A DNA stretch of 24,000 nucleotides from an uncultured Anaerolineaceae bacterium (GCA_964370815.1 CAYJKQ010000011.1:55621-79620), one strand, 5' to 3'; positions 16,249 to 21,440 are shown, counted from the stretch's first letter. The notes: a model not told the origin generated them from the sequence alone. A program made the numbers and translations.

Positions 16249-17304
16249 TTATATCAACCCAAACTTGTGTTCATGGTTTAGCAGGTATTGCTTGCGCCAC
16301 AACCCACCCCCGTAACCGACAAGTCTCCCGTCTGCCCCGATGACGCGATGGCAAGGAATGATGATGGCGATCCTGTTATCGCCATTTGCCCTTGCCACAG
16401 CCCGCACTGCACTGGGCTGATCTATGAGCTCAGCCTGTTCTTTGTAGGAGCGGGTGGAACCATAGGGGATCATTTGCAAGCCCGCCCACACTTTTTGTTG
16501 AAAAGGTGTTCCGGGCAGCACCAGGGGAATGTTAAATACCTTGCGCTTGCCGGAAAAATATTCTTCCAATTGCATGCTGAGACCATCAAAATGCTTACTG
16601 AAACCGGGGACTATCTCAGCCTTCAATAAATTGTTCAACCTTCCCAACTGGGTTTCCAACATTCTTCTATCGACAAATTCCAGCAGGCAAATGCCATCTT
16701 CGCTGGCTCCAGCCAGCATTGGACCCAACGGTGTCAATATCCGGGTGGTAACGATCAGTTGCCCTTCCAGGCTTTTAGCGGGGCTAAAACCAGCCGTCTT
16801 TTTGAACGAATCCGTGAAGCCACTTAACGAATTGTAGCCGGATTCAAAAGCTGTTTCCGTAACCCCTTCTCCATATTTGATCCTTCCAAAAGCCTGCCCG
16901 ATCCGCAAGGCACGCAAATAAGCCTGAAAAGTTATGCCGTGATGTTTCTTGAACCAGTAATTGACCCGGTTGGGTTCCAACCCCCTGGACCGCAGGTCGC
17001 TGCTTTGTATCCTGACCAGCGGGTTCTCGTTGATCTCAGCTAATAAAGGATTCAACCAATCGGGCGCTGTCCCTTTATAACTTAAGGGATTACAAACCTT
17101 GCAGGGTCGGTAACCACTCACAAGTGCTTCATGAGCTGTGCCAAAAAACTCCACGTTTTCCGGTTTTGGTTTTCGGGCAGTACAAGTAGGCCGACAAAAG
17201 ATACCGGTCGTCTTGATCCCAGCCATGAAGATCCCCTCAAAATTACTGTCCTTGTTGACCAAGGCTGAATACATTATTTCTGTGTCCGGCAGGGTTTGTT
17301 CCAT
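16249..17304 (-). CDS. ada: bifunctional Ada: methylphosphotriester-sensing Zn domain + AraC HTH + O6-alkylguanine-DNA methyltransferase
   Basis: 351 aa. N-terminal Cys cluster FCRPTCTARKP...YRPCKVC, a central AraC-type HTH region, and the C-terminal MGMT active site IIIPCHRVIG. Confidence 0.9.
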   Translation of the reverse strand: MEQTLPDTEIMYSALVNKDSNFEGIFMAGIKTTGIFCRPTCTARKPKPENVEFFGTAHEALVSGYRPCKVCNPLSYKGTAPDWLNPLLAEINENPLVRIQSSDLRSRGLEPNRVNYWFKKHHGITFQAYLRALRIGQAFGRIKYGEGVTETAFESGYNSLSGFTDSFKKTAGFSPAKSLEGQLIVTTRILTPLGPMLAGASEDGICLLEFVDRRMLETQLGRLNNLLKAEIVPGFSKHFDGLSMQLEEYFSGKRKVFNIPLVLPGTPFQQKVWAGLQMIPYGSTRSYKEQAELIDQPSAVRAVARANGDNRIAIIIPCHRVIGADGRLVGYGGGLWRKQYLLNHEHKFGLI

Positions 17305-17323
17305 GAGTGTGCCTTTCCTGTGA

Positions 17324-17352
17324 ATTTTAGTAGTACCTCATTCTGCCATCAA
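17324..17352 (-). promoter_or_regulatory. candidate ada promoter: -35 TTGATG, 17-nt spacer, -10 TAAAAT (minus strand)
   Basis: rc of 17347-17352 and rc of 17324-17329. The short predicted leader contains GGAAAGG. Confidence 0.35.
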
Positions 17353-17475
17353 TTGATCTTACTCACAACCGAAAATCAAACAAACAATTTTCCTTCCACC
17401 TGCTCTCACATTGTCGCGGAAGTGAGCATGAGCGCTGGTATCAGGGTGTCAGCTGGCGTTGCCAGTTCGCGCAAA

Positions 17476-17808
17476 TTAGACGGCATGCCTGCCCAACCAG
17501 AACTTGCGCCAGTCGCCCTTGCTGAGGAAAAGCGCCAGCAGGGCATACAGGCTTCCAGCCCAGAAACCGAGCGTGAGCATTGCCGCCGTCCACAGGATGG
17601 CAACCGGCAGCGACCTCTCGCGGTACAGGATCCAACCGGAAAACAGCAGGAAGCCAGTGTACAGGTCCACCAGGGAGACGATACCCCACGGCATTTTCAT
17701 CAGCTCGCTGCCTTCAGTGAAGAAATCACCCACCGTAAAACCGTAGATCAGTACAGCCGTCATGACCAGCAGGCCTAAAATGGAGATGAGTTTCGCGGTC
17801 TTCATCAC
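17476..17808 (-). CDS. small polytopic membrane protein, DUF1475-like
   Basis: 110 aa. The motif GDFF.EGS.L..MPWGIVSLVDLY.GF.LFSGWI.YRE resembles DUF1475 from memory. Start is GTG 17808 (GTGA overlap) or ATG 17805 (TGATG overlap) with the upstream gene. Confidence 0.65.
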   Translation of the reverse strand: MMKTAKLISILGLLVMTAVLIYGFTVGDFFTEGSELMKMPWGIVSLVDLYTGFLLFSGWILYRERSLPVAILWTAAMLTLGFWAGSLYALLALFLSKGDWRKFWLGRHAV

Positions 17809-18149
17809 AGCACCAGTATCACGCCGATCACGATCTCAATTACCAGGCTGATGACGTTGGAGCTTTCGATGGATTTATCTGTAAACATCGAGATGGCTCG
17901 AACCACGGCGATTGCCAGGTACATCATGCCAAGCATGGGATAAGCTACAGCTTTGTCTAATATTAGTGCTGCGATGCCAAGCCCGATGAATAGTCCGCCA
18001 AATATGGCGCGGATCTCCGTAATGCCGCGCCCACCGACCGGATGGATGCCGGTAAAGCCTTCAATTTTGGTCGGCACGACCAGGGACAACAGTCCGGTTA
18101 GTAAGGTGGCGATAACAGCAATGATCTGGAGTATCTTTAGCAGGTTCAT
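17805..18149 (-). CDS. small 4-TM membrane protein, DUF4345-like
   Basis: 114 aa. The motif E.RAIFGGLFIGLG is reminiscent of DUF4345. AAGGAG SD lies 5 nt upstream of the ATG. Confidence 0.65.
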   Translation of the reverse strand: MNLLKILQIIAVIATLLTGLLSLVVPTKIEGFTGIHPVGGRGITEIRAIFGGLFIGLGIAALILDKAVAYPMLGMMYLAIAVVRAISMFTDKSIESSNVISLVIEIVIGVILVL

Positions 18150-18242: not shown

Positions 18243-19085
18243 TCAAGTATTCTCTTGTGAGATCACGGCGAATCCGAGCGCACCCACCCCAAGATGGCAA
18301 CCCAGCACGGGTGTGATCTGATGAATGGGAATTTCTGTATCGGGCAGGTATTTAAGAACCTGCGTGCGCAAATCTTTGGCACGCGCTTCCACGCCAGCAT
18401 GCAGAACAGCCAACTGTTCGAAAGGACCATATTCGTCCAGCCAGCCGATCATTCGTTCCATTGCCCGCCGCGTGGTACGGACCCGGTGTGCGACAGGTTT
18501 GCCCTGGTTCATATGCAGGAGAGGTTTAAGCTTCAGGATCTCTCCAAAACGTGCCACGGCAACATGCATGCGTCCGCTTCGGCGCAGGTATTCGAGTGTG
18601 TCCAGCGCCGCGAAGACATGGGTGCAAGGCATGAGATCCTTCAAGGATTCCAGGATCTCTTCGATCTTATGACCGGACTGCGCCATCCGGGCTGCTTTTT
18701 CCACCAGGAGCCCCAACCCCAGGCTGAGTTGACCCGAGTCCAGTACGGTGACAGGGATGCGGGTGAATTCTTTGGCTGCTGTGCGTGCCGAGTTGAGAGT
18801 CGCGCTGAGCGCTTCAGCAATGTGGATGGATAGGATGGCTTGAAAACCTTTATCCGCCAGCTCTTCAAAGCGCTTTATGAATATTTCCGGTCCGGGTGTG
18901 GCAGTGCTTGGTGCGGGGTCATATTCCGGCAGCCGGGTGTAGAACTCGTCTTTGGTGATGTTCACTCCGTCCATCAACCGCTCTTCACCCATCTGGATGA
19001 AGAGCGGGATGACCTCTATGCTGTAGCGCTGCACGATATCGGGGGTCAGATCGCAAGTACTGTCAGTGACGATGGCAATTTTCAT
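18243..19085 (-). CDS. DegV-family (FakB-like) fatty-acid-binding protein
   Basis: 280 aa with IAIVTDSTCDL at the N-terminus, STATPGP (the TSQPSPG equivalent) and typical DegV length. The start is 15 nt after the heliorhodopsin stop. Confidence 0.9.
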   Translation of the reverse strand: MKIAIVTDSTCDLTPDIVQRYSIEVIPLFIQMGEERLMDGVNITKDEFYTRLPEYDPAPSTATPGPEIFIKRFEELADKGFQAILSIHIAEALSATLNSARTAAKEFTRIPVTVLDSGQLSLGLGLLVEKAARMAQSGHKIEEILESLKDLMPCTHVFAALDTLEYLRRSGRMHVAVARFGEILKLKPLLHMNQGKPVAHRVRTTRRAMERMIGWLDEYGPFEQLAVLHAGVEARAKDLRTQVLKYLPDTEIPIHQITPVLGCHLGVGALGFAVISQENT

Positions 19086-19100
19086 GGATACTCACGGGTT

Positions 19101-19892
19101 TTAGACTGGCGCCAATGTTCCGGCGAAGATCATCCAGGCCAATACGGTTTTGGCGACCAGGCTCAAAATAATGAAGGCGCGTTCACCATACAGGTAATCC
19201 TTCCATGGTCCGATCTTTTTATATTGCAGGTACATGTTGACGGCAAAGGTATTGAAGAACACGAACAGGGTCGGGATGATGGCGTACACAAAGGCAGGTG
19301 GTTTGGCTTCCCCACCCGAGGCTATCGAACCGAAGAAGTATATGAAGATCACCAGCCAGGGGATGATGCCGGCGATCGAGCCAAAAGTGAACGGCGCCCA
19401 GTCCAATTTTTCCTTGCCCTGGTTCAGGCTTTCCATCAACAGACCGAACAGGTTCATCATGGCATTCAAACCGAACATCACCACTATGGCACCCAGGTCC
19501 CAGACCCCGGCCAGCATCCCGATCAGAACGATCATCAGGGATGAGCTGAGAGCATATTCATAGAACCGGATGGGGTTCCTGCCTTGTTCCAGTTTTTGTA
19601 CATAACTCTTGTAACCAATGCCGCTTAGGTAAAAATGAGCGATGGCGGAAAGCAGGAGAAAGATCGCGACTGCCGGACCCAGGGGTAACTCGTATAAGAG
19701 TTTTGCGACTGGAGCCAGCGAGAAAGTACTGGTGTTAAAACTCAGGAAATTGGTGAAAACAGGATAGGTGGTGTCATTGCTGACCAGCCACATAAAGACA
19801 CCCTGGATCAGGTGCAAAATACCCATGATCAGGTTGAAACGGCGCAGGCTGGTAAATTTAGCCTGGTTGGAACGAACTTCTGTGTTAGTCAT
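19101..19892 (-). CDS. heliorhodopsin (retinal-binding 7-TM photoreceptor)
   Basis: 263 aa, 7 TM. It aligns by eye with the prototype 48C12: RRFNLIMGILHLIQ (His27), LSAIAHF (His86), RFYEYALSSSLMIVL (counterion Glu112, codon 19557-19559), IAGIIPW, LFVFFNTFAVNMYLQYKK, and GERAFIILSLVAKTVLAWMIFAGTL (Schiff-base Lys248, codon 19149-19151). AAGGAG SD present. Confidence 0.9.
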   Translation of the reverse strand: MTNTEVRSNQAKFTSLRRFNLIMGILHLIQGVFMWLVSNDTTYPVFTNFLSFNTSTFSLAPVAKLLYELPLGPAVAIFLLLSAIAHFYLSGIGYKSYVQKLEQGRNPIRFYEYALSSSLMIVLIGMLAGVWDLGAIVVMFGLNAMMNLFGLLMESLNQGKEKLDWAPFTFGSIAGIIPWLVIFIYFFGSIASGGEAKPPAFVYAIIPTLFVFFNTFAVNMYLQYKKIGPWKDYLYGERAFIILSLVAKTVLAWMIFAGTLAPV

Positions 19893-19934: not shown

Positions 19935-21251
19935 TTACGTGGTTCTTTGCCCGGCAGGCTGCAGGTCAAACCAGTTCAATAGGGGTGCAGCTTCCTGCCC
20001 GAGCGCTTTACGGACACTATCGAAATAAACGCTCCAGGCTGCGCTTGCCTGGTCAATGCCGTACTGGCGGTTATTTAGAAAACCTTCCATCCAGTGCATT
20101 TCAGGCAGGAGAAGGTCCAGGTCGCCGAGATAAAGTGCTGCGGCAACCGAATTGTTCATAAAAAGGGTTATATCGTTGTGGTTTCCTCCTGAAATATCTC
20201 CTGCAGAAAATTGAGTTGAGATCAGTGCTTGGATCGTGTGCAGGTTGAGCTGGAATGATTCATAAAGCTTCCGGAAGGGATTTTCTCCTTCATCAGGGTT
20301 GGCAGGAAGTTTTTTATGGAGGATCAATTCTTCAATTGCAGCGGGAGCTTCTGCGAGCGTATCCCCGAGAAAATGTGCCGGGAGCTGCTTCAGGAGCCCG
20401 GGATTGTTCCTGAAAATACGTCCACCAAAACCAACGGGATGGCTATTTGCCAATGCCTGTACGGTTCGTTTTAATTGTGCGGCACTGCTCAATTGTTGTG
20501 CGGAAAGGACAACCAGCCGGGGCTGAATGCTTTCAGCCGTCTCTTTCAGTTGTGCAATGGGGACGTTGGCGCCCAGGTCGATCACTTTGTAGCCCTGCCT
20601 TCGCAGCAGGAAGGTCAGACAAGTACCCGGGAGTGTATGCTCCTCGCCGGGTGGGCAGCACATCAGGATGGTCTCCTCCCGGTTTGAAGGGGGCATGGAG
20701 GCTATCAGGCTGCCCAGGCGCCGCCGGGCAACCCCGGCCGCGAAGTGTTCCTGTTGTATGCTGGCTTTTCCCTGGTACCAGCTTTCTCCGATTTCAAACA
20801 TGCCTTTCAGGAAGATCTCGCTGCACACTGTTTCCGGGTTGACGAGACCGAAAGCCCTGTTGACGACCTGGTCAGCCAGGTTTTCGTTAAAATTAAGGCA
20901 GGCTTCCAGCCATTGAGCGCGCAGACTGTCTGGCGCAGAACCCATCCCCCCTGATGAAAAATTTGCAGCCTGGATGGAGGAGGATGGATGATCTTCTTCC
21001 AGAGGATCGCGGCCTTTTCGGATCAGGTCGTGCCACAAACCCACGGAATTGGAGATGCTGATGCCTTCGGATCGTTTTGCCATCAACCAGCGGATGATGG
21101 CGATGTCACGTTGCGAGTAGATGCGCTGCCCGCCGGAGGTGCGTCCCGGGGCAGGCAGGTTGTAACGACGCTCCCAGGCTCGCAGGGAATCTGCGCTCAG
21201 TCCGGTTAAACGGATGACGGCTTTCAGGTTGAAGGTGGGTGTGTTTTTCAT
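19935..21251 (-). CDS. MerR-family, cobalamin-binding light-responsive regulator (CarH/LitR-like) with a C-terminal extension
   Basis: Start moved to ATG 21251 (MKNTPTFNLKAV..), since the track start at 21290 falls within the promoter region. N-terminal MerR HTH. The Wx9EH motif WYQGKASIQQEH lies at 20745-20780. A Rossmann B12 domain carries the His loop PPGEEHTLPG (His codon 20637-20639). About 125 extra C-terminal residues follow. Confidence 0.85.
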   Translation of the reverse strand: MKNTPTFNLKAVIRLTGLSADSLRAWERRYNLPAPGRTSGGQRIYSQRDIAIIRWLMAKRSEGISISNSVGLWHDLIRKGRDPLEEDHPSSSIQAANFSSGGMGSAPDSLRAQWLEACLNFNENLADQVVNRAFGLVNPETVCSEIFLKGMFEIGESWYQGKASIQQEHFAAGVARRRLGSLIASMPPSNREETILMCCPPGEEHTLPGTCLTFLLRRQGYKVIDLGANVPIAQLKETAESIQPRLVVLSAQQLSSAAQLKRTVQALANSHPVGFGGRIFRNNPGLLKQLPAHFLGDTLAEAPAAIEELILHKKLPANPDEGENPFRKLYESFQLNLHTIQALISTQFSAGDISGGNHNDITLFMNNSVAAALYLGDLDLLLPEMHWMEGFLNNRQYGIDQASAAWSVYFDSVRKALGQEAAPLLNWFDLQPAGQRTT

Positions 21252-21277: not shown

Positions 21278-21307
21278 ATTGTAACCCCATTTACAATCAT
21301 TTGTCAA
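21278..21307 (-). promoter_or_regulatory. promoter of the photoregulator/heliorhodopsin cluster with embedded operator palindrome
   Basis: Minus strand: TTGACA (rc 21302-21307), 18-nt spacer, TACAAT (rc 21278-21283). A perfect palindrome ATTGTAA-N6-TTACAAT (21278-21297) fills the spacer and the -10. Confidence 0.55.
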
Positions 21308-21411
21308 GGGTTTGTCCATATATTGTATGGATATGGATTGGAAGCGATCAAACCTTTCGGGCAGAGGCAGAAAAGCAGCAGAGCATGAATGATCGTAGAA
21401 CGCAAGAAAAT

Positions 21412-21440
21412 AAATAACTCCCTTTTGCGGGGAGTTATTT
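21412..21440. terminator. intrinsic terminator downstream of the lipoprotein gene
   Basis: 11-bp perfect stem AAATAACTCCC / GGGAGTTATTT with a 7-nt loop. U-rich sequence follows on the - strand (AUUUUCUU) and also on the + strand (UUUUCU). Confidence 0.6.

Follow-up and report, generated by a model that had tools for sequence, protein, structure and literature searches.

A heliorhodopsin-DegV gene pair within a putative light-induced, CarH-controlled operon of Anaerolineae

INTRODUCTION

Since 2018, the function of heliorhodopsins (HeRs) has remained an open question, and proteins of the DegV family are the strongest published genomic lead. Here, we analyze an HeR gene and the degV gene that directly follows it in a 24,000-nucleotide stretch of DNA (the window) from an uncultured Anaerolineaceae bacterium (GCA_964370815.1 CAYJKQ010000011.1:55621-79620). 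In an analysis of thousands of HeR neighborhoods, two families, DegV and DUF2177, stood out as the most characteristic and were absent near proton pumps (Chazan et al., bioRxiv 10.1101/2021.02.16.431466). DegV was the strongest HeR-neighbor family in that work, with Firmicutes and Chloroflexi as the main sources of the pattern and DUF1295 as a frequent companion, and a light-dependent remodeling of lipids was proposed. Published HeR neighbor classes also include MerR regulators, SDR, and photolyase next to DUF2177. Later papers restate the HeR-DegV association, one of them remarking that it is not universal. Our literature search found no published experimental test of HeR-DegV and nothing relevant on heliorhodopsin with FakB or on DegV with CarH or LitR.

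The present locus resembles the neighborhood described by Chazan et al. in that DegV lies directly beside HeR on the same strand in a member of the Chloroflexi, in that DUF1295 occurs within the cluster of its relatives, and in the shared theme of light-dependent lipid remodeling. It differs in that DUF4345 and DUF1475 stand in place of DUF2177. In addition, that paper is silent on MerR, CarH, or B12 regulators as an organizing feature and does not report DegV as a core member and HeR as an optional one. HeRs have also been reported to bind or regulate the products of other operon neighbors, namely, glutamine synthetase, photolyase, and an ABC transporter (OmrDE). As in those systems, the HeR studied here is co-operonic with a nonrhodopsin protein that is a possible target; unlike them, its DegV neighbor exists mostly without HeR.

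DegV proteins contain a deep hydrophobic pocket, and the closest described system is the fatty acid kinase FakA/FakB of Firmicutes, with FakB1 and FakB2 of Staphylococcus aureus. In FakB2, Thr61, Ser93, and His266 reportedly form a carboxylate network, whereas Arg170 is said to serve in catalysis and Arg202 in FakA binding, as Broussard et al. are said to have described in 2016.

CarH/LitR regulons, which are governed by adenosyl-B12 photoreceptors, are described from Thermus, Myxococcus, and Bacillus and, for class II LitR, from Pseudomonas. The light-responsive signature of the regulators comprises GxxW, EH, and GxxH (W131, E141, H142, and H177 of TtCarH; PMC11796333), and the CarH operator consists of tandem 11-bp direct repeats, nnnnTnnACAn, that overlap the -35 or -10 element (PMC9304148). 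In Pseudomonas and Vibrio, light regulons of this family contain photolyase, SDR, and fatty-acid-modifying enzymes (UfaM and CFA synthase).

On balance, we lean toward the view that the HeR-degV pair forms the middle of a single light-induced, CarH-controlled membrane-lipid and oxidative-stress operon of Anaerolineae (Chloroflexota). The HeR-DegV association itself is already known, and our additions are modest: the CarH framing, the cassette-like behavior of HeR, and a Glu91 signature that marks the DegV subfamily.

RESULTS

The HeR and degV genes form a tight pair

The HeR open reading frame (ORF) spans 19892..19101 on the minus strand, encodes 263 amino acids (aa), and ends with a TAA stop codon at 19103..19101. 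Its product matched the heliorhodopsin profiles of Pfam (PF18761, E=1e-99, 333 bits) and NCBIfam (HeR equivalog NF038020, 356 bits for a cutoff of 100) and aligned end to end with TaHeR, the solved HeR of Thermoplasmatales (6is6, E=1e-71). The Schiff-base lysine is in place (SLVAK in both proteins), as is the counterion glutamate (RFYEY for RWFEY of TaHeR, the position mutated in 7clj), so both the profile scores and the key residues assign the protein to the heliorhodopsins. The degV ORF (19085..18243, minus strand; ATG at 19085..19083) encodes a DegV/FakB-type fatty-acid-binding protein of 280 aa that matched PF02645 over residues 2-276 (E=1e-75, 254.8 bits for a cutoff of 27) and TIGR00762 (269 bits for a cutoff of 99.7). 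An initial annotation of this DNA had named both genes correctly.

The two ORFs are separated by 15 nt (19086..19100, minus strand; AACCCGTGAGTATCC) that contain a weak Shine-Dalgarno motif, GTGAG. We found no terminator-like site at this junction, and the 80-nt stretch over it folded no better than shuffled sequence (z=0.69), in agreement with the coordinates, spacing, and lack of a hairpin given in the initial annotation. Same-strand HeR-DegV pairs of relatives show a gap of 8-30 nt in 24 of 26 cases. Since the junction is tight, free of terminators, and kept in relatives, cotranscription of HeR and degV, as first proposed, is supported. Coupled translation, proposed along with it, fared less well: HeR and degV do not overlap here or in any of the relatives compared, and the gap in relatives holds a good Shine-Dalgarno motif (AGGAG/GGAGG), so independent initiation appears at least as likely as strict coupling. 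At the same spot, the closest relatives (L001, L086, L087, and L122) carry GGGAG, AGGAG, or GGAGG instead of GTGAG. HeR itself starts 42 nt past the stop codon of a carH-like gene and is preceded by the Shine-Dalgarno motif AAGGAG.

degV is a core gene of a CarH-headed cluster

HeR and degV are the second and third genes of a five-gene run on the minus strand, carH-like-HeR-degV-DUF4345-DUF1475, with successive gaps of 42, 15, 93, and -4 nt. We collected orthologues of DegV with 59-87% identity from metagenomes and by look-up, which yielded 81 distinct loci, 66 of them informative. The gene directly upstream of degV was carH-like in 36 of the 81 loci and HeR in 10; an epimerase gene occupied this place in 2 loci, a carH gene on the opposite strand in 1, and another gene or a longer gap in 17, while in the remaining 15 the contig was too short for assignment. 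Furthermore, carH precedes HeR in every locus whose contig extends that far. The recurrent cluster consists of crtB (minus strand), crtI, carH, the optional HeR, degV, then DUF1475, DUF3159, DUF1295, or DUF4345, followed by AhpC, SDR, and photolyase, with an SRPBCC/START lipid-binding protein as an occasional extra member. As carH lies directly upstream of degV at 36 loci and HeR at only 10, degV belongs to the core of this CarH-headed cluster for light and photo-oxidative stress, which is widespread in Anaerolineae, and HeR is an accessory gene. The content of the cluster is reminiscent of CarH/LitR regulons, which likewise include carotenoid genes, photolyase, SDR, and lipid-related genes; on the other hand, we found a rhodopsin and a DegV protein reported for no CarH/LitR regulon.

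The operon is headed by a B12-type regulator and operator-like repeats

The first gene of the run (21251..19935, minus strand) encodes a MerR-type regulator with a B12-binding region, as judged by Pfam. Its domain order, a MerR helix-turn-helix (PF13411/PF00376), a B12-binding_2 four-helix bundle (PF02607), and a B12-binding domain (PF02310), is that of CarH/LitR regulators. It also carries GESW-x9-EH (residues 168-182) and GEEH, which correspond to the GxxW, EH, and GxxH elements of the light-responsive cobalamin signature. W-x9-EH is present in all 43 CarH homologues of the cluster, and E-x-H is present in all of those shown, whereas the fourth signature element, GxxxP, was not located in the regulator. 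The protein is about 140 aa longer than CarH/LitR regulators. Its C-terminal extension had no Pfam match, and a relationship to the DICT protein that occupies the neighboring slot in other loci (see below) was discarded, as the two showed no similarity.

Upstream of carH, we identified a sigma-70-like promoter (21278..21307, minus strand) with TTGACA and TACAAT separated by an 18-nt spacer, which matches the consensus at 11 of 12 positions. The start of a longer carH ORF (21290) falls within this promoter, so the true start is probably the ATG at 21251. A terminator-like hairpin at 21412..21440 (minus strand; AAATAACTCCC-loop-GGGAGTTATTT followed by a T-run), with an 11-pair stem and a T-rich tail, marks the end of the upstream Ig-like gene and is predicted to insulate the operon from upstream transcription.

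The promoter overlaps a candidate CarH operator (21279..21333, minus strand) in which five 11-bp repeats follow one another in phase (dr-DR-DR-dr-dr). Full nnnnTnnACAn repeats occur at 21322..21312 and 21311..21301, and the -35 element TTGACA lies inside the second, so that the phased repeats overlap -35 as in described CarH operators, where tandem 11-bp TnnACA repeats lie across this element. The pattern TNNACA-N5-TNNACA, found at 21318..21302, would be expected 0.38 times over the whole window. Tandem TnnACA repeats were present at the cluster head in 10 of 14 crtB/crtI regions and 7 of 18 regions upstream of carH, compared with a background of 0.06 per kb. We had also tried a three-repeat pattern, ACA-N8-ACA-N8-ACA, and replaced it with the two-repeat TnnACA pattern, as it was present in this locus and in 3 of 41 regions upstream of carH but in none of the 14 crtB/crtI regions. 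A second match to the three-repeat pattern, at 17297..17321 (minus strand) over the start of ada, does not fit TnnACA and probably arose by chance.

DegV retains the functional residues of FakB

We compared DegV with fatty-acid-bound structures and obtained matches over residues 1-275 to 2dt8 (E=4.9e-38), 3fys (7.7e-35), FakB1 (5e-32), and FakB2 (4x9x, 1e-31). DegV thus shares its fold family with FakB1 and FakB2 over its full length. In the alignment to 4x9x, T61, S94, R172, R203, and H264 of DegV coincide with the five functional residues of FakB. Across 90 members of the DegV subfamily, the Thr, the Ser, and both Arg residues are invariant, and the His is conserved in 82 and replaced by Asn in 8. 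By likeness to FakA/FakB, DegV would be expected to pull a fatty acid out of the membrane and offer its carboxylate for phosphorylation.

The loops around the head-group site are distinctive. DegV lacks the canonical TSQP and SSG(L/I)SGT loops found in all aligned solved homologues and has S-T-A-T-P and A-E91-A-L-S-A-T instead. The consensus of the 90 subfamily members is TA[A/T]P and S-E-x-L-S-A-T, in which Glu91, beside the carboxylate-binding Ser, is invariant. Position 90 is Ala in this DegV alone and Ser across the rest of the subfamily.

These features bear on the idea that DegV might serve HeR as a carrier, in either direction, of retinal, retinoic acid, or some other lipid derived from carotenoids; the initial annotation had named a fatty acid or, conceivably, retinal or retinoic acid as the cargo. 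A carrier of this kind would suit the deep pocket of DegV proteins, the presence of crtB and crtI in the cluster, the unusual neighbors of the head-group site (invariant Glu91, and TA[A/T]P for TSQP), and the lateral fenestration of HeRs, which is described in the literature as binding lipids and carotenoids. However, all five residues for carboxylate binding and FakA-dependent phosphorylation are kept, which favors a carboxylate ligand handed to a FakA kinase and argues against retinal, a molecule without a carboxylate. Moreover, a rhodopsin is not found next to most subfamily members, and no retinal-forming dioxygenase gene (blh) was seen in the 24-kb window or in the clusters. We therefore consider a carrier role of this kind extremely doubtful. 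Another conceivable scheme, which we rate as highly improbable, is that the Glu91 and TA[A/T]P type of DegV found in CarH clusters is no ordinary FakB and handles a photo-oxidized or carotenoid-derived lipid that HeR passes on or gates in response to light. This would amount to a rhodopsin-coupled extraction of lipids under the control of a B12 photoreceptor and, if true, would bring a pair of light sensors together in the same operon.

HeR behaves like a mobile insert between carH and degV

HeR-plus loci are dispersed among HeR-minus loci in the DegV tree. The N terminus of DegV reads [M/L]KI[A/S]IVTDST in HeR-plus loci and MNIRIVTDST in near-identical HeR-minus neighbors, for example, in L133 compared with L006 and L119, in L144 compared with L014, and in L116 compared with L008. 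Indeed, Arg4 is present in 45 of 52 HeR-minus DegVs but in only 1 of 21 HeR-plus ones. This split by HeR presence indicates that HeR arrives with its own junction and with the first four codons of degV. These codons gave the sole strong signal when we examined DegV for residues tied to HeR that might mark an interface, and we dismissed the interface explanation since recombination of a cassette fits better. In L015 (5813-5944) and L140 (4004-4135), which represent one organism, a truncated degV 5' end of the MNIR (HeR-minus) type, about 42 codons long, lies between carH and HeR, before the complete degV, and looks like the scar of an HeR-degV cassette insertion.

Identity at 4-fold-degenerate sites pointed in the same direction. 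Within the group L005..L119 (36 pairs), it reached 0.62 for HeR, 0.47 for DegV, 0.44 for CarH, and 0.56 for DUF1475; between this group and the clade of the present locus, the values were 0.45, 0.37, 0.35, and 0.36, respectively, and against more distant clades, they were 0.37 for HeR, 0.37 for DegV, and 0.39 for DUF1475, all from pairs that are not independent and with codon bias as a possible source of inflated identity. This pattern is suggestive of synonymous sites that are younger in HeR than in its flanks.

The carH-degV slot also hosts other genes. In L124 (673-1266), L126 (5393-5959), and L142 (2848-3477), it is occupied by a DICT sensory-domain protein some 190 aa in length (PF10069, E=6e-11) and not by HeR, while a DUF6069-like membrane protein is found there in L088 and sulfatase and epimerase genes in L081. 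Taken as a whole, the above findings point to HeR being a mobile, horizontally spreading insert between carH and degV.

An insert of this type could be in the operon for its expression only. HeR would have landed once behind a light-inducible promoter, near carotenoid genes that supply its chromophore precursor, and would then have spread by homologous recombination through the carH and degV flanks, DegV being merely the next gene without any functional tie. The diverse inserts of the slot, the separate junction and younger synonymous sites of the HeR cassette, and the presence of crtB and crtI within the same cluster are all in line with such hitch-hiking. On the other hand, independent HeR-DegV pairs exist outside CarH clusters (see below), the association is published across phyla, and HeR is found beside other members of the lipid module, namely, DUF1295 (L004 and L030), AhpC (L027), and the tail of the module (L041/L043). 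We regard expression hitch-hiking without a functional tie as rather improbable.

HeR-DegV pairs also occur outside CarH clusters

For relatives of HeR, we assembled 80 loci with Anaerolineae-type HeRs of 66-94% identity from species-representative genomes. DegV is the immediate neighbor of HeR in 23 of the 80, and the approximately 750 kb of flanking DNA contains hardly any further DegV. The adjacency is thus far above chance and real, and the mention of other such pairs in the initial annotation is borne out by the report of Chazan et al. on mainly Firmicutes and Chloroflexi. In 15 of the 23 loci, DegV lies downstream on the same strand, with very short gaps in 13 and gaps of 138-185 nt in L076 and L080. 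The HeR-DegV order holds for 13 of the 17 closest loci (L001-L017); in three others, HeR sits in the same cluster without DegV and is followed by DUF1475 (L002 and L013) or DUF1295 (L004). In the metagenome-assembled genome co234_bin62, an HeR-degV pair with nearly the same neighbors is present on each of two contigs (L011 and L012), so the locus may be duplicated or the bin may combine two strains.

The remaining 8 loci show other arrangements. In L063, from a Coriobacteriaceae genome, the two genes share a strand with DegV upstream, and DegV is divergent upstream of HeR in 7 species (L033, L035, L038, L039, L040, L044, and L045). The divergent loci encode a canonical TSQP-type DegV amid unrelated genes (BipA, arginine deiminase, and MarR) with no CarH nearby. 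No CarH-type repeats were found in their degV-HeR intergenic regions, which contain a different conserved palindrome, an element of about 35 bp with the consensus TCACTTtGGTAAt-N9-aTTACCatGGTCAc and the inverted repeat GGTAAT/ATTACC. This element is probably a shared operator. The different, canonical DegV subfamily of the divergent pairs and of L063, which lie outside the CarH cluster, and the unrelated gene context of the divergent pairs imply that HeR and DegV became linked on more than one occasion, which accords with the published statistics.

Recurrent linkage raises the question of a direct partnership, in which photoactivated HeR would bind DegV at the cytoplasmic face of the membrane and alter its loading, unloading, or handing over of fatty acids; the initial annotation had likewise put forward DegV as the light-regulated effector of HeR. 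HeR and DegV adjoin in at least three independent architectures involving two DegV subfamilies: downstream on the same strand, divergent upstream with TSQP-type DegV, and DegV before HeR in Coriobacteriaceae. In addition, the pairwise divergences of HeR and DegV are correlated (r=0.78, Mantel p ~5e-4), DegV is specific to HeRs as opposed to proton pumps in the data of Chazan et al., and a direct partnership would match the HeRs reported to bind or regulate neighboring glutamine synthetase, photolyase, and ABC transporter. Against it, this DegV subfamily occurs mostly without HeR in cis (36 carH-adjacent versus 10 HeR-adjacent loci), HeR occurs in the cluster without DegV at L002, L004, and L013, and HeR presence is mirrored in DegV by the first four codons alone; these travel with the cassette and speak for recombination rather than an interface. 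A direct partnership is thus conceivable, but we consider it unlikely.

Downstream genes and operon boundary

The two genes that follow degV encode small membrane proteins. The first (17805..18149, minus strand), 93 nt after degV, matches DUF4345 (Pfam, E=3e-7) and is a regular member of the cluster, with a position conserved in relatives. Its product also gave a subthreshold NCBIfam match to the "AGROH133_08824 family phage infection protein" (53.9 bits for a cutoff of 120). The second (17476..17808, minus strand) overlaps it by 4 nt and is DUF1475-like (Pfam, E=3.8e-5); in relatives, DUF1475 is the most common immediate successor of degV (41 of 85 loci). We rejected DUF2177 as the identity of either protein, as no match was obtained even at E<=10. 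An unrelated Ada/Ogt gene (17304..16249, minus strand) begins 171 nt past DUF1475. In the closest relatives (L001, 3510-5420; L122, 7599-9509), DUF3159 and about 1.2 kb more separate DUF1475 from ada. As only 171 nt (17305..17475) lie between these two genes here, this copy of the cluster has lost DUF3159.

DISCUSSION

We propose the following model for the light-induced operon. In the dark, a CarH-type repressor bound to adenosyl-B12 would occupy the tandem repeats of 11 bp that cover the -35 element. Upon illumination, the repressor would come off, and the five genes would be transcribed together. DegV, as a FakB-type protein, would draw free fatty acids from the membrane and present them, probably, to a FakA kinase encoded elsewhere, its likely task being the renewal or repair of membrane acyl chains under light. 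HeR would be an optional insert that is coexpressed with the lipid module and is dispensable for the function of DegV; it may provide a second, retinal-based light input to this module.

Several observations weigh against this model. On the side of the regulator, CarH is the best NCBIfam match (NF052513), but its score of 146.6 bits lies below the equivalog cutoff of 400, so the protein falls outside this equivalog, and the C-terminal extension makes it 438 aa long for a profile of 274 positions. The candidate operator has only two full repeats, accompanied by three pseudo-repeats. On the side of the ligand, invariant Glu91 and TA[A/T]P are absent from solved DegVs, and the ligand may be no ordinary fatty acid. 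We found no gene for FakA (Dak2 domain) within the 24-kb window, and the 162 bits of DegV against the FakB1 equivalog NF038249 remain below the cutoff of 350. With its altered TSQP and SSGLSGT loops, the missing FakA gene near degV, and a place in a light-stress cluster and not in housekeeping lipid metabolism, DegV differs from the FakB proteins of Firmicutes. Finally, the recurrence of HeR-DegV pairs outside CarH clusters argues for a tighter link than mere coregulation, and the limits of the 4-fold-site comparison given above bear on the history proposed for HeR.

What the locus offers is a concrete, testable frame for the HeR-DegV association and not the association itself. This frame comprises a defined promoter and operator, a CarH-type light switch, and a fixed set of coexpressed lipid and oxidative-stress genes. 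Moreover, HeR-plus and HeR-minus versions of one operon exist in nature, and near-identical pairs of them could reveal what HeR adds. If the lipid-repair function that we favor for the operon is true, HeR would be part of how monoderm bacteria respond to photo-oxidative stress and not of energy capture.

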